Source: Hyphomicrobiales bacterium
Lineage (GTDB): Bacteria > Pseudomonadota > Alphaproteobacteria > Rhizobiales > Xanthobacteraceae
Assembly: GCA_003152455.1 (NCBI GenBank)
Contig: PMAF01000314.1
Coordinates: 1 to 58,049, forward strand
Direction of reading: 5' to 3'
Length of the DNA: 58,049 bases
Made by a program: the position numbers and the translations under genes. Of this stretch, positions 12,358-17,935 are shown piece after piece; position 1 is the stretch's first letter; each line of letters starts with the position of its first letter. The notes beneath the pieces are model-generated. The model searched no databases, had not been told where the DNA came from, and saw only the letters and a list, made by a program, of their open reading frames with translations.

Positions 12358-12681
12358 TTAACGGCCCTGATAGGCCGGGGTGCGCACGATCAGCCCGTCG
12401 AGCGCTTCCGTTACCTTTATCTGGCACGACAGCCGCGAGGTAGGCTTCACCTCGAAGGCGGTGTCGAGCATCTCTTCCTCTTCCGCCGAAGGCGGACCGA
12501 CCACCGCAAACCACGTCTCGTCGACATGCACCAGGCAGGTCGCGCAGGTGCAGGAGCCGCCGCATTCGGCGACGATGCTGGCGACGTCGTTGCGCAAGGC
12601 CGTCTCCATCACGGTCGAGCCGAGTTCGGCTTCGACCGTGTGCACGGCGCCGTCATGTTCGATGTAGGTGATCTTCGGCAT
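12358..12681 (-). CDS. [2Fe-2S] ferredoxin, adrenodoxin/putidaredoxin type
   Basis: AECGGSCTCATC...SRLSCQ. Confidence 0.95.
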   Translation of the reverse strand: MPKITYIEHDGAVHTVEAELGSTVMETALRNDVASIVAECGGSCTCATCLVHVDETWFAVVGPPSAEEEEMLDTAFEVKPTSRLSCQIKVTEALDGLIVRTPAYQGR

Positions 12682-12687
12682 TAAAGG

Positions 12688-13713
12688 CTACGCCACGCCG
12701 AGTTTTTTCTGCAGGCTGGTGGAGGAGGTGGTGTACTGGAACACCAAGCGCTTGTCGGGATGCACGTAATGATGCGCCTTCTGCGCCATGAGCGCTGCCT
12801 CGTGGAACCCGGACAGAATGAGTTTGAGCTTGCCCGTATAGGTGTTGATGTCGCCGATGGCGAAGAGGCCGACTTTGTTGGTTTCAAAAGTGCCGGTGTT
12901 GACCTTGATCAATTCGTCGTCCATCTCCAGCCCCCAATCCGCGACCGGACCGAGCTTCATCGTGAGGCCGAAGAACGGCAGCATGGCGTCGCACTCGACG
13001 TGTTCGACGGCGTCCTTGCCTTTGATCGACGCGGCGGTGAGCACGCCGTCGGCGCCTTCCAACCCCGATACCTGACCGATCTTCAAGTCCATGGCGCCGG
13101 CCGCGACCAGCGCGCGCATCTTGTTGACGCTGTCGGGAGCGCCGCGGAAATCGTCGCGCCGATGCACCAGCGTGAGCCGTTTGGCGATCGGCTGCAGATT
13201 GAGCGTCCAGTCCAGCGCGCTGTCGCCGCCGCCGACCACCAGCAACCTTTTGCCGCGGAAGTTTTCTATCTTGCGCACGGCGTAGAATACCGACTTCTCT
13301 TCATAGGGCTCGATGCCGGGGATCGGCGGGCGTTTCGGCTGGAACGAGCCGCCGCCGGCGGCGATCACCACCGCCTTGCATTCGAAGGTCTTGCCGGCGT
13401 CGGTGGTGACGCGAAACAGCGGATCGCCGATATTCTCGATGGCCGTCACCATCTCGCCGAGATGAAAGGTGGGTCCGAACGGTTTGATCTGCCGCATCAA
13501 AGCTTCGGTGAGCCCGTGGCCGGTGATCAATGGAATACCGGGAATGTCGTAGATCGGCTTTTCCGGATAAAGCTCGGCGCATTGGCCGCCGACCTTGTCG
13601 AGGATGTCGACCAGGTGGGCCTTGATGTCGAGCAGGCCTAGCTCGAATACCGCGAACAGGCCGACCGGCCCGGCACCAATAATCAGAACGTCGGTTTTGA
13701 TCGTATCGCTCAT
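12688..13713 (-). CDS. Ferredoxin-NADP(H) reductase, TrxB-like (YumC type)
   Basis: [44 protein letters not shown]; no CxxC redox pair. Confidence 0.9.
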
Positions 13714-13761
13714 TCTCTTCGTCCCGGCGTCGGCCGGCTCCTTACTTCGATTTTACGGTGG

Positions 13762-14781: not shown

Positions 14782-14828
14782 ACAGGGAGAAGGCCGCCGG
14801 ACGGTTTCAAGCCGGCGCCGCTTGGAGC

Positions 14829-16484
14829 ATGCACGCAATCGACTTTCAGACCGAGCCGTCGCGCTACCGCCACTGGCGCATCGAGCCCGAAGGCGACGTC
14901 GCCTACTTGATCATGGACGTCGATCAGGCCGGCGGATTATTCGACGGCTATGAGCTCAAGCTCAATTCCTACGACCTCGGGGTCGACATCGAGCTCAACG
15001 ACGCGGTGCAGCGGCTGCGCTTTGAGCATCCAGAGGTGCGCTGCGTCGTCATCAAGTCAGGCAAAGACAATGTGTTTTGCGCCGGCGCTAATATCCGCAT
15101 GCTCGGCAAGTCGACGCATGCCCAGAAGGTGAATTTCTGCAAGTTCACCAACGAGACGCGGTTCGCCATCGAGGACGCGTCCGAGAATTCCAAGCAGACT
15201 TATCTCTGCGCCATCAATGGCAACGCCGCCGGCGGCGGCTACGAGCTGGCGCTCGCCGCCGACCACATCATGCTGGTGGACGATCGCCGTTCGGCGGTCG
15301 CGCTGCCAGAAACGCCGTTGCTCGCGGTGCTGCCAGGCACCGGCGGGCTCACCCGTGTCACCGACAAGCGCAAAGTAAGGCGCGACCGCGCCGACGTGTT
15401 CTGCTCGATCGAAGAGGGCATCCGCGGCACCAAGGCGGTCGAATGGCGGCTGGTGGACGAGGTAGTGCCCAATTCGAAGTGGAAAGACGCGGTGGCCGCG
15501 CGCGCGCACGAAATGGCCGCGCGCTCGGACCGGCCGAAAAACGCCAAGGGTATCGCGCTCACTGCGCTCGACCGCAAGATCGACGGCGACCGCGTCGCCT
15601 ATTCGCACGTGGACGTGGAAATCGACCGGGCGCGCGGGCTGGCGTCCGTCACTGTGCGTGGGCCCTCGCAACCGGCGCCGGCGTCGATCGAAGCCGCGCA
15701 CGCGCTCGGCGCCAAGTTCTGGCCGCTCACGGTGGCGCGCGAGCTGGAAGACTCCATTTTGCATTTGCGCGCCAACGAACAATCCATCGGCGTCCTGCTG
15801 CTTCGCACCGAAGGCGATACGAAAGGCGTGCTCGATCACGACGATTTCCTCGCCAAGACGAACGGCGACTGGCTGATGCGCGAGATTCGCCATTACCTCA
15901 AGCGCGTGCTCAAGCGCGTGGACGTGACGCCGCGCAGCATCATAGCGCTGATCGAGCCGGGCTCCTGCTTTGCCGGCACGCTGGCGGAACTGGCCTTTGC
16001 CGCCGACCGCTCGCTGATGTTGGTCGGCACCCGCGCCGGCGACAACCGGCCGCCGGCGGCGATCACGCTGGGTGAGGCCAATTTCGGTTGGTATCCGATG
16101 GGAAATGGGCTCACGCGTTTGCAATCCCGCTTCCTCGGCGAACCGGAGCAGGTCGGGCACGTTAAAGAGAAATCCGGCCAAGCCATCGAAGGCGAAGCCG
16201 CCGCGGACCTTGGCCTAGTCACGCTGGCCTACGAGGATTTCGATTGGAACGACGAATTGCGCGTCATGCTGGAGGAGCGCGCGAGCTTCTCGCCCGACGC
16301 CATGACCGGCATGGAAGCGAACTTGCGCTTCGCCGGCCCTGAAACCATGGAAACCAAGATCTTCGGACGGCTGACCGCCTGGCAGAACTGGATTTTCCAG
16401 CGGCCGAACGCGATCGGCGAACAGGGCGCGCTGAAACTCTACGGCAGTGGCGTGTCGCCGACTTTCAATAAGGAAAGGGTGTGA
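14829..16484 (+). CDS. boxC: 2,3-epoxybenzoyl-CoA dihydrolase
   Basis: LKLNSYDLGVDIEL, FCKFTNETR, AGGGYELALA, LPGTGGLTR, LTAWQNWIFQRPNA. Confidence 0.96.
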   Translation: MHAIDFQTEPSRYRHWRIEPEGDVAYLIMDVDQAGGLFDGYELKLNSYDLGVDIELNDAVQRLRFEHPEVRCVVIKSGKDNVFCAGANIRMLGKSTHAQKVNFCKFTNETRFAIEDASENSKQTYLCAINGNAAGGGYELALAADHIMLVDDRRSAVALPETPLLAVLPGTGGLTRVTDKRKVRRDRADVFCSIEEGIRGTKAVEWRLVDEVVPNSKWKDAVAARAHEMAARSDRPKNAKGIALTALDRKIDGDRVAYSHVDVEIDRARGLASVTVRGPSQPAPASIEAAHALGAKFWPLTVARELEDSILHLRANEQSIGVLLLRTEGDTKGVLDHDDFLAKTNGDWLMREIRHYLKRVLKRVDVTPRSIIALIEPGSCFAGTLAELAFAADRSLMLVGTRAGDNRPPAAITLGEANFGWYPMGNGLTRLQSRFLGEPEQVGHVKEKSGQAIEGEAAADLGLVTLAYEDFDWNDELRVMLEERASFSPDAMTGMEANLRFAGPETMETKIFGRLTAWQNWIFQRPNAIGEQGALKLYGSGVSPTFNKERV

Positions 16485-16486
16485 TC

Positions 16487-17935
16487 ATGAACATCGTTCA
16501 GGTCGACTACGACGGCTTGATCCCGAACAATGTCGGGCTCGGGGAAGACGTCCGCGTCAAGCACGCGCTGGAGAAGTGGCACCCTGGCTACATCAACTGG
16601 TGGAACGACATGGGGCCGGAGGGTTTCCAGGAGTCGCTCGTATATCTGCGCACCGCGATCAGCGTCGACCCCAAGGGCTGGGCCAAGTTCGATTACGTGC
16701 GCATGCCGGAATACCGCTGGGGCGTGCTGCTGGCGCCGCAGCACGAGGGCCGCAAGATTCCGTTCGGCATGCACAAGGGTGAGGACGCCTGGCAGGAAGT
16801 GCCTGGCGAATACCGCGCCATGCTGCGCCGCTTGGTGGTGATTCAGGGCGACACCGAGCCGGCCTCGGTCGAGCAACAGCGCTATCTCGGCAAGACCGCG
16901 CCGTCGCTCTACGACATGCGCAACCTGTTCCAGGTCAATGTGGAGGAGGGGCGCCATCTTTGGGCGATGGTCTATCTGCTGCAGAAATATTTCGGTACCG
17001 ACGGCCGCGAGGAGGCCGAAGCCCTGCTGCAGCGCCGCTCCGGCGACCCCGACACGCCGCGCATGCTGGGCGCCTTCAACGAGAAGACGCCGGACTGGCT
17101 GTCGTTTTTCATGTTTACCTATTTCACCGACCGCGACGGCAAGATGCAGCTCGAGGCGCTGGCGCAGTCCGGCTTCGATCCGCTGTCGCGCACTTGCCGT
17201 TTCATGTTGACCGAGGAAGCGCACCACATGTTCGTCGGCGAGACCGGCATCACCCGCATCATCCAACGCACCTGCGAGGCGATGAAGGAGGCGGGCATCA
17301 GCGATCCAAATGAAATAGAGAAAGTGCGCAAGCTCGGTGTGATCGACCTGCCGACCATCCAGAAAAAAGCCAACATGCATTTCTCGTTGACGCTCGATCT
17401 GTTCGGCAACGAGATCTCGACCAATGCCGCCAATGCCTTCCACTCTGGTCTCAAGGGCCGTTACCGCGAAGATCGGCTCAAGGACGACCACCAGCTCGAG
17501 GGCGGCACCTATCCGGTGCTACGCCTGATCGACGGCAAAATCCAGAACGAGGATTCGCCGGCGCTTTCGGCGCTCAACATGCGGCTACGCGACGACTATG
17601 TGGTCGACTGCAATGTTGGCGTTGGCCGCTGGAACAAGATGATCGCGGAGCACGGAATTCCGTTCGAGATCAAGCTGCCGCATGTCGCCTTCCACCGCCA
17701 TATCGGCGAGTTCACCAATATCAAGGCCGATGTGAGCGGCAATGTGCTCAGTGACGCTGAATGGGCAAAGCGGCGGGGCGAATTCCTGCCCTCCGACGGC
17801 GACAAAGATTTTATAGAAAGCCTGATGCAGCCGCAGATGGAGCCGGGCAAGTTCGCCAGTTGGATCGCGCCGCCGCGGGTCGGCATCGACAACAAGCCCG
17901 GCGATTTCGAATATGTGAAGATCGCCGATGCTTAA
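16487..17935 (+). CDS. boxB: Benzoyl-CoA 2,3-epoxidase diiron subunit
   Basis: IPNNV, QGDTEPASVEQQ, diiron ExxH motifs VEEGRH and TEEAHH, FTDRDGK. Confidence 0.96.
   Translation: MNIVQVDYDGLIPNNVGLGEDVRVKHALEKWHPGYINWWNDMGPEGFQESLVYLRTAISVDPKGWAKFDYVRMPEYRWGVLLAPQHEGRKIPFGMHKGEDAWQEVPGEYRAMLRRLVVIQGDTEPASVEQQRYLGKTAPSLYDMRNLFQVNVEEGRHLWAMVYLLQKYFGTDGREEAEALLQRRSGDPDTPRMLGAFNEKTPDWLSFFMFTYFTDRDGKMQLEALAQSGFDPLSRTCRFMLTEEAHHMFVGETGITRIIQRTCEAMKEAGISDPNEIEKVRKLGVIDLPTIQKKANMHFSLTLDLFGNEISTNAANAFHSGLKGRYREDRLKDDHQLEGGTYPVLRLIDGKIQNEDSPALSALNMRLRDDYVVDCNVGVGRWNKMIAEHGIPFEIKLPHVAFHRHIGEFTNIKADVSGNVLSDAEWAKRRGEFLPSDGDKDFIESLMQPQMEPGKFASWIAPPRVGIDNKPGDFEYVKIADA

Follow-up and report, generated by a model that had tools for sequence, protein, structure and literature searches.

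Organization of the box locus

Among the CoA-dependent aerobic routes of benzoate degradation the Box pathway is the principal one, and its genes serve as a genomic marker for the breakdown of aromatic compounds at low oxygen. We analysed a box gene cluster of the genus Pseudolabrys (Xanthobacteraceae) that lacks boxA, together with an adjacent ferredoxin gene (fdxB) and a gene for a ferredoxin-NADP+ reductase (FNR), the products of which are candidates for replacing BoxA as electron donor of the oxygenase BoxB. The cluster lies in a stretch of 58,049 nucleotides (nt) of contig PMAF01000314.1 (assembly GCA_003152455.1), the whole of which is referred to as the window; the nearest public relatives of this genome are nearly all metagenome-assembled genomes from soil or peat. 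According to the open reading frames and family scans, positions 12358-17935 hold fdxB, FNR and boxR on the minus strand, divergent from boxC and boxB on the plus strand.

BoxC (14829..16484) matches TIGR03222 over its full length with 926 bits (cut-off 712). The gene boxB (16481..17935), coding for the diiron oxygenase subunit of benzoyl-CoA 2,3-epoxidase, overlaps the boxC stop by 4 nt, and its product reaches 886 bits against TIGR03225 (cut-off 499, profile positions 1-471). BoxR (13762..14667) is a BzdR/BoxR-type repressor with an XRE helix-turn-helix and a shikimate-kinase-like domain (NF006015/PRK08154, 387 bits, cut-off 204; Pfam HTH_31 and SKI). All three genes are full-length and free of stops, with scores far above curated cut-offs. 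They are joined by a thioredoxin-reductase-type FNR of 341 amino acids (aa; 12688..13713, Pyr_redox_2/3) and an adrenodoxin/putidaredoxin-type [2Fe-2S] ferredoxin of 107 aa (12358..12681, Pfam Fer2 43.9 bits). The initial annotation, made from the sequence alone, had placed all five genes at these positions, and our scans confirmed them. Its spacings were exact as well, with 48 nt between the boxR stop and the FNR start and 6 nt between the FNR stop and the fdxB start, and so was its impression that no obvious terminator intervenes, as a simple scan of the minus strand from boxR to the hopanoid gene hpnB found none. This operon-like spacing suggests that boxR, FNR and fdxB form a single operon with boxR as its first gene.

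BoxA and BoxD undetected in the genome

The genome is 96.3% complete and split into 314 contigs, so the absence of BoxA is not provable from this assembly alone. Within it, the best match to the BoxA family model TIGR03224 scored 73 bits (cut-off 459), and tblastn with two BoxA proteins gave no further candidate. Two partial matches in the window (26149-26808 and 32412-32984) were considered as a cryptic BoxA and rejected, being the FAD/NADPH (FNR-like) domains of CysJ and of a CysJ-like sulfite-reductase flavoprotein near cysI, nirA and cysG. Further, boxA was undetected in four boxB-carrying congeners, each 99% complete, and a recheck that scored every candidate found no BoxA in G048 (a congener assembled into 4 contigs), G036, G458, G582 and G274. 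A copy elsewhere in the genome or hidden in assembly gaps was therefore rejected, as family model, tblastn, congeneric and closed genomes were all negative. The description of the locus as a Box module without BoxA, for which the initial annotation had named an orthologue elsewhere in the genome as the test, stands.

The same annotation had suggested a search for boxD, which was not found either; the best NF008868 match in the genome scored 128 bits (cut-off 444), and none of the four congeners had a match at E <= 1e-100. Genes of the BoxD-sized type (open frames of ~530 aa, 670-765 bits) are rare in the family, occurring in about 16 of 132 boxB-carrying genomes (e.g. G137, 751 bits). With boxD undetected here and in the congeners, the aldehyde oxidation step may fall to a non-orthologous enzyme.

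The missing BoxA is neither an assembly artefact nor rare. Across a sample of 201 Xanthobacteraceae genomes, boxB was present in 132 and boxA in 58, all of them within the boxB set, which leaves 74 boxB-positive genomes with no detectable boxA; all five Pseudolabrys genomes carried boxB and none boxA. An even sampling of 400 Alphaproteobacteria gave 78 genomes with boxB, and boxA was detected in 14 of these and in none of the other 64 (a tally that includes the unpublished genome G440, used there only). The boxB-carrying genomes without boxA include closed ones (among them G036, G166, G198, G076 and G120), and the boxB flanks of G036, G166 and G068 match those of the BoxA-containing G132 with boxA alone missing. 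The initial annotation took BoxA as the normal donor of BoxB; the BoxA-less module is instead the commoner state among the sampled Alphaproteobacteria.

Undetected boxA and boxD, here and in the four congeners searched, are also what would be expected if the module were a decaying remnant in which boxB and boxC no longer work and need no reductase. We hold this to be highly improbable. The intact boxB, boxC and boxR speak against decay, and so does the scan of one genome per species described below, which recovered 63 loci with BoxB at least 79% identical; such identity, together with the retention of boxC alongside, indicates purifying selection. Decay also sits badly with BoxA-less boxB-boxC pairs prevailing in the sampled class, closed genomes included. 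More than 60 species-level genomes keep this oxygenase intact, and it needs a reductant.

One genome, G021, departs from this distribution. Its box cluster (L074, G021:C271, 9717-10913) has an adjacent fdxB and no boxA at that locus, and a different contig carries an orphan boxA (552 bits) beside two ligase paralogues. This may be an intermediate state or contamination, the genome being rated 3% contaminated.

Conservation of the arrangement across BoxB lineages

The order found in the window, fdx, FNR and boxR divergent from boxC and boxB, recurs in 45 of the 51 Pseudolabrys-type loci of the species-level scan that have at least 4.7 kb of upstream sequence, and boxC stands beside boxB wherever a locus reached far enough. 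Among the 57 loci that extend 1.5 kb or more downstream, a single one has boxA adjacent. The junctions are tight as well. In 39 of 40 Pseudolabrys-type species the boxR-FNR gap measures -8 to 63 nt (overlapping in five), and the FNR-fdx gap ranges from -1 to 198 nt. The flanks vary: hpnB adjoins 9 of the 63 loci, a ligase gene (bcl) 30 and the 4-hydroxybenzoyl-CoA reductase (4-HBCR) gene hbaA 25. All these counts come from related, non-independent genomes, and we do not treat the patterns as statistics.

The variable flanks bear on the possibility that the pair serves its neighbours and not BoxB, either 4-HBCR, which needs reduced ferredoxin, or the hopanoid/isoprenoid enzymes HpnH and IspH. 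Both kinds of neighbour are at hand in the window. The genes for 4-HBCR beta (19553-20572, TIGR03195 411 bits), alpha (20569 to ~22900, TIGR03194 1157 bits) and gamma (22899-23381, Fer2_2, 160 aa), all on the minus strand, lie just past boxB together with an aryl-CoA ligase gene, and an interval of 90 nt in which no terminator was detected separates fdxB from the hopanoid operon hpnB-CDE-shc downstream on the same strand (hpnB 11122..12267, minus strand, TIGR03469 513 bits, followed by hpnC and the rest). However, each neighbour adjoins only the minority of loci given above. Three Pseudolabrys genomes, each 99% complete (G048, G138 and G173), keep fdx-FNR-boxR-boxCB with no 4-HBCR alpha above cut-off, which led us to reject 4-HBCR as the reason for the arrangement. 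We likewise rejected a general hopanoid linkage, since hpn genes adjoin only in the nearest relatives, the box-linked pair of G137 and G172 has none in its vicinity, and the locus at which the pair usually resides in other genera is free of them. In addition, the 4-HBCR of Thauera uses a 2[4Fe-4S] ferredoxin of much lower potential, which counts against this enzyme as a client. Neighbouring enzymes as the main clients thus seem improbable, and the reservation in the initial annotation that the pair might serve IspH or HpnH is not favoured.

A tree of BoxB resolves two clades with 100/100 support each. Clade I (13 rows) comprises Pseudolabrys and the genera g47, g40, g22 and g57, with fdx beside box in 11 rows and FNR as well in seven of these; in the remaining two (G046 and G039), boxB has boxA as its neighbour, fdx is missing from the vicinity and the genome encodes just one fdx. 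No row of this clade combines an adjacent fdx with an adjacent boxA. The 36 rows of clade II (Bradyrhizobium-like and others) have boxA adjacent in 16, nothing in 20 and fdx in none. Two other layouts occur within clade I. In g57 and g22, fdxB alone stands beside boxR/boxC (in G057 it precedes boxC by 149 nt in the same orientation), while in G137 and G172 (g47) a boxD-boxB-boxC cluster is divergent from FNR-fdx. The FNR of the latter two genomes groups with Pseudolabrys (98/98) and far from that of their congener G097, and their old FNR locus keeps fdx without FNR, a grouping which suggests that box, FNR and fdx moved between genera as one unit.

A relocated reductase and a distinct ferredoxin

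The FNR of the window aligns along its entire length with the R. palustris FNR (5YGQ; 598 bits, residues 1-340) and also matches 3AB1 and 3LZW, both deposited as ferredoxin-NADP reductase. It has two dinucleotide-binding GxGxxG motifs (GAGPVG at residues 13-18 and GGGDSA at 161-166), and its only cysteines (Cys45, Cys112 and Cys241) form no CxxC redox disulfide; against the thioredoxin reductase model TIGR01292 it scores 121 bits (cut-off 343). The match to 5YGQ, the two motifs and the lack of CxxC place it in the FNR class and not among thioredoxin reductases, and its sequence identifies it as a thioredoxin-reductase-type FNR orthologous to that of R. palustris.

This is the sole FNR of its type found in the genome. 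Orthologues with ~66-88% identity occur in 168 of the 201 family genomes, BoxA-containing ones included, and are usually single-copy (two matches in four genomes). Other FNR-fold reductases of the genome are two CysJ-type proteins in the window and a PDR/PaaE-like protein of 321 aa on contig C126. Where both genes are on one contig in other genera, FNR lies 0.45-2.2 Mb from boxB, and in the closed BoxA-less genomes named above it sits away from boxB at a conserved locus, with the usual order of a very large protein gene, a ~130-aa gene, fdx, sometimes a second fdx or a thioesterase gene, and then FNR. The corresponding locus of our genome (C182:26224-31591, L069) retains the very large protein (>1400 aa), the ~130-aa gene, the product of which had no NCBIfam match, and a housekeeping fdx, but no FNR; the contig ends 1.6 kb past it. 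Judging from these gene orders, FNR has left its old locus for the boxR operon in Pseudolabrys. The possible replacement reductase that the initial annotation saw beside box is no dedicated extra copy but the only one of its type found in the genome, moved from a conserved housekeeping locus.

The fdx remaining on C182 is 82-83% identical to the fdx of G100 and G076 and is the orthologue of the FNR-adjacent fdx in other genera, with 63% identity to fdxB; identities between the window fdx and the old-locus type range over 57-63%. In a tree of these ferredoxins, every box-adjacent fdx falls outside a well-supported housekeeping clade (99/96) and among the FNR-proximal fdxB copies of tandem fdxA-fdxB-FNR loci, where branching is poorly resolved. 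The closest solved relative of FdxB is R. palustris PuxB (3HUI, 129 bits), followed by FdVI (1E9M), terpredoxin and putidaredoxin. Its translation gives the cluster ligands as Cys40-x5-Cys46-x2-Cys49-x36-Cys86, and it is not an ISC ferredoxin (TIGR02007 62.8 bits, cut-off 132). The initial annotation regarded the FNR/ferredoxin pair as widespread; the ferredoxin of the window, however, is a distinct paralogue and not the widespread PuxB-type orthologue, which has stayed at the old locus on C182.

As a separate observation, all 25 family genomes (12 genera) with at least two matches to this ferredoxin at E <= 1e-38 carry boxB, against a base rate of 132/201 and with phylogeny ignored in the count, which hints that the fdxB paralogue goes with box even when it is not adjacent.

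There is a serious rival explanation, in which FNR and ferredoxin form a general housekeeping couple, their adjacency to box is a historical accident kept by vertical inheritance, and BoxB is reduced by an unlinked donor, as must hold for the many BoxA-less genomes whose box genes have no carrier gene close by. Such a donor could be the same pair in trans, a flavodoxin or another reductase. In its favour, FNR is single-copy and present in the family whatever the box or boxA status. In other genera, closed genomes that lack boxA have it 1.3-2.2 Mb away from boxB, measured along the shorter arc of the chromosome. A linked carrier is missing from most BoxA-less clusters outside clade I, and other FNR-fold reductases are available in the genome. 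An accident, however, would hardly account for a five-gene core that stays constant in ~50 species while both flanks change, for an FNR that moved from its ancestral locus into the boxR operon in particular, where the junctions overlap or are very short, or for fdxB remaining alone at box in two more genera. Nor does it easily accommodate the apparent movement of the cluster between genera as a unit and the mutual exclusion of adjacent fdx and boxA in clade I. On this balance we consider the explanation possible, though rather unlikely.

Electron carriers in other box clusters

Links between box genes and small electron carriers are not confined to clade I. We compared 40 box loci from other alphaproteobacterial families, 11 with boxA and 29 without. 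A flavodoxin gene is present in 9 of the 29 BoxA-less clusters and in none of the 11 with boxA; it usually lies between ligase and boxR, once directly after boxB, and the five copies scanned score 77-98 bits against PF00258. Across ~22 BoxA-containing loci we found no fdx, FNR or flavodoxin. From its gene contexts, the flavodoxin-box linkage appears to be an independent parallel to the fdx-box linkage.

An all-against-all clustering of neighbouring open reading frames in BoxA-less Bradyrhizobium-type clusters was also examined for a conserved alternative reductase beside boxB, a candidate that we rejected as none emerged. The neighbours common to these clusters, with or without boxA, are boxR, ligase, an alpha/beta hydrolase, a DUF309 protein and ABC-transporter genes. 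The DUF309 gene (~174 aa) is conserved directly upstream of boxC irrespective of boxA (L040:12965-13489; also L041, L145, L147, L153 and L154).

Proposed electron transfer to BoxB

We lean slightly towards the interpretation that, in this Pseudolabrys genome, electrons pass from NADPH through FNR and FdxB to BoxB and that this chain replaces BoxA. FNR, FdxB and BoxB would then constitute a three-component benzoyl-CoA epoxidase. FNR, carrying FAD, would take a hydride from NADPH and reduce the [2Fe-2S] cluster of FdxB one electron at a time; FdxB would pass two electrons to the diiron centre of BoxB, which would epoxidise benzoyl-CoA with O2, and BoxC would then open the ring. Transcription of FNR and fdxB would start, together with that of boxR, at the divergent promoter between boxR and boxC, which bears putative BoxR-type TGCA operators, and a shared promoter of this kind would have the electron chain induced together with boxCB by benzoyl-CoA. 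We infer every electron-transfer step and the co-regulation from comparative genomics. As the sole copy in the genome, FNR likely retains general housekeeping functions as well.

Related diiron enzymes take electrons from [2Fe-2S] proteins, PaaABCE via PaaE and acyl-ACP desaturases via ferredoxin. Moreover, BoxA has been reported to be needed in small amounts only and to interact with BoxB transiently (PMC4498308), which makes its replacement plausible. The initial proposal, which tied the ferredoxin/FNR pair to BoxB, is partly supported, as the linkage to box is favoured over one to hopanoid enzymes by the prevalence of the arrangement (45/51 loci, hpnB 9/63), the short gaps and the exclusion pattern in clade I; what did not hold is that the FNR is dedicated or the ferredoxin a widespread orthologue.

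Several observations weigh against this electron chain. With a single FNR in the genome and the pair present nearly throughout the family (168/201, BoxA-containing genomes included), other clients must exist, and the position of FNR beside box could be an accident inherited in a single genus. No more than one or two evolutionary events may lie behind the clade I pattern. BoxA-containing genomes such as G051 and G140 likewise have fdxB-type paralogues at the old FNR locus, and a search for BoxR-type operators upstream of the separately transcribed fdx in g57 and g22 gave nothing convincing. Finally, a carrier gene is missing from the surroundings of 20 of the 29 BoxA-less clusters in the class-level comparison and of at least 18 such clusters in clade II (Bradyrhizobium and relatives), indicating that linkage is not needed for function.

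The promoter region from which the proposed electron chain would be expressed is the 161-nt interval between boxR and boxC (14668..14828). It contains three TGCA cores in ATGCATTATAATGC-like contexts that recur across species, and TGCA/ATGCAT repeats correspond to the BoxR/BzdR operator type (PMC6449761), so that we regard them as putative operators. In G137 and G172, TGCA-N6-TGCA boxes occupy the 230-nt promoter region shared by boxD-boxB-boxC and FNR-fdx.

The boxR-FNR spacer (13714..13761, minus strand, 48 nt) carries a further conserved feature, a GGAGCCGGC-N4-GCCGG element that is found in most Pseudolabrys-type species (L087-L163). Its loop is variable and its stem nearly invariant, and it is located ~25 nt ahead of the FNR start codon. 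The element could serve to bring a distant Shine-Dalgarno sequence nearer the start, as a site of processing or as a binding site for a protein. RNA folding of the boxR-FNR and fdx-hpnB spacers was no better than that of shuffled sequence (z ~0.4). In one species (L127) an insertion of 393 nt separates boxR and FNR; it includes long inverted repeats, GGGTGGGCTAAG...CTTAGCCCACCC, and resembles a small repetitive or mobile element, and the GGAGCCGGC hairpin is kept beside FNR.

Comparison with known systems and implications

The reference system is that of Azoarcus (Aromatoleum) evansii, with BoxAB, BoxC and the regulator BoxR (EC 1.14.13.208). BoxB, BoxC and BoxR of the window are clear orthologues above equivalog cut-offs, and the divergent boxR/boxC layout, the putative TGCA-type operators and a nearby CoA ligase are shared. 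Unlike in A. evansii, BoxA, an NADPH-dependent protein with FAD and two [4Fe-4S] clusters, and BoxD were not found in the genome, and a separate FNR flavoprotein and a [2Fe-2S] ferredoxin are encoded in the presumed boxR operon, giving three proposed components where A. evansii has two.

The R. palustris FNR (RPA3954, 5YGQ) and palustrisredoxin PuxB (3HUI) represent the same classes of thioredoxin-reductase-type FNR and vertebrate-type [2Fe-2S] ferredoxin. PuxB is known as a partner of the P450 CYP199A2 and is not known as a Box partner. Pairs of this type remain, in most other genera of the family examined, at their own fdx-(fdx)-FNR locus by the very large protein gene, unlinked to box, whereas in the window FNR is in the boxR operon with the paralogue fdxB and in reversed order, FNR preceding fdx.

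A parallel is offered by multicomponent soluble diiron monooxygenases such as the phenylacetyl-CoA epoxidase PaaABCDE, in which PaaA, a diiron relative of BoxB, is reduced via a [2Fe-2S] centre fed by NAD(P)H through a flavin (PMC4498308). The flavin and the [2Fe-2S] centre are fused there in the PDR-type PaaE, in contrast to the two proteins from unrelated families encoded in the window, and BoxB needs no structural subunits.

Taken more broadly, these comparisons raise the prospect, to which we assign an even chance, that the Box pathway does not generally include BoxA. BoxB would then act, in most Alphaproteobacteria, as a stand-alone diiron epoxidase fed by small general carriers that differ from lineage to lineage. 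In the Pseudolabrys clade this carrier would be a [2Fe-2S] ferredoxin, accompanied or not by FNR, and in several further families a flavodoxin, with BoxAB as one solution of several. Among the papers searched, none linking ferredoxin, FNR or flavodoxin to box was found. BoxA-less clusters themselves have been recorded: a survey of benzoate-CoA ligase gene contexts described them as 'incomplete' Box clusters in some Burkholderiales, reading the missing BoxA as a possible block in degradation or as complemented by a second, complete cluster, and proposed no alternative donor (PMC10803450). Surveys that require boxA label such clusters incomplete, and if BoxB works with ferredoxin/FNR or flavodoxin, many of these calls may be wrong. 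This would affect about four-fifths of the boxB-carrying Alphaproteobacteria sampled and more than half of those in Xanthobacteraceae, among them Bradyrhizobium and Pseudolabrys, an abundant genus of soils. An enzyme of biocatalytic interest would then have a simple electron chain of three proteins, and the system would clearly exemplify how a dedicated reductase gives way to different carriers in different lineages.

Neighbouring genes in the window

Convergent with boxB lies a gene for an aryl-CoA ligase of the benzoate-CoA-ligase family (17932..19539, minus strand, TIGR02262 729 bits), followed by the 4-HBCR genes. The alpha gene as called (892 aa) is over-extended at its 5' end, since the family match begins at residue 129 and the gamma gene overlaps the extension. 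Further on, cysJ-cysI, coding for NADPH sulfite reductase, occupies positions 25051-28555, with the ligase and 4-HBCR genes inserted between it and boxB. In many Pseudolabrys-type loci with enough flanking sequence, L049, L078 and L079 among them, cysJ-cysI lies 1.5-9 kb downstream of boxB. This is probably a synteny at the genus level, although CysJ, a diflavin reductase with flavodoxin-like and FNR-like parts, may also be considered as a possible donor for BoxB.

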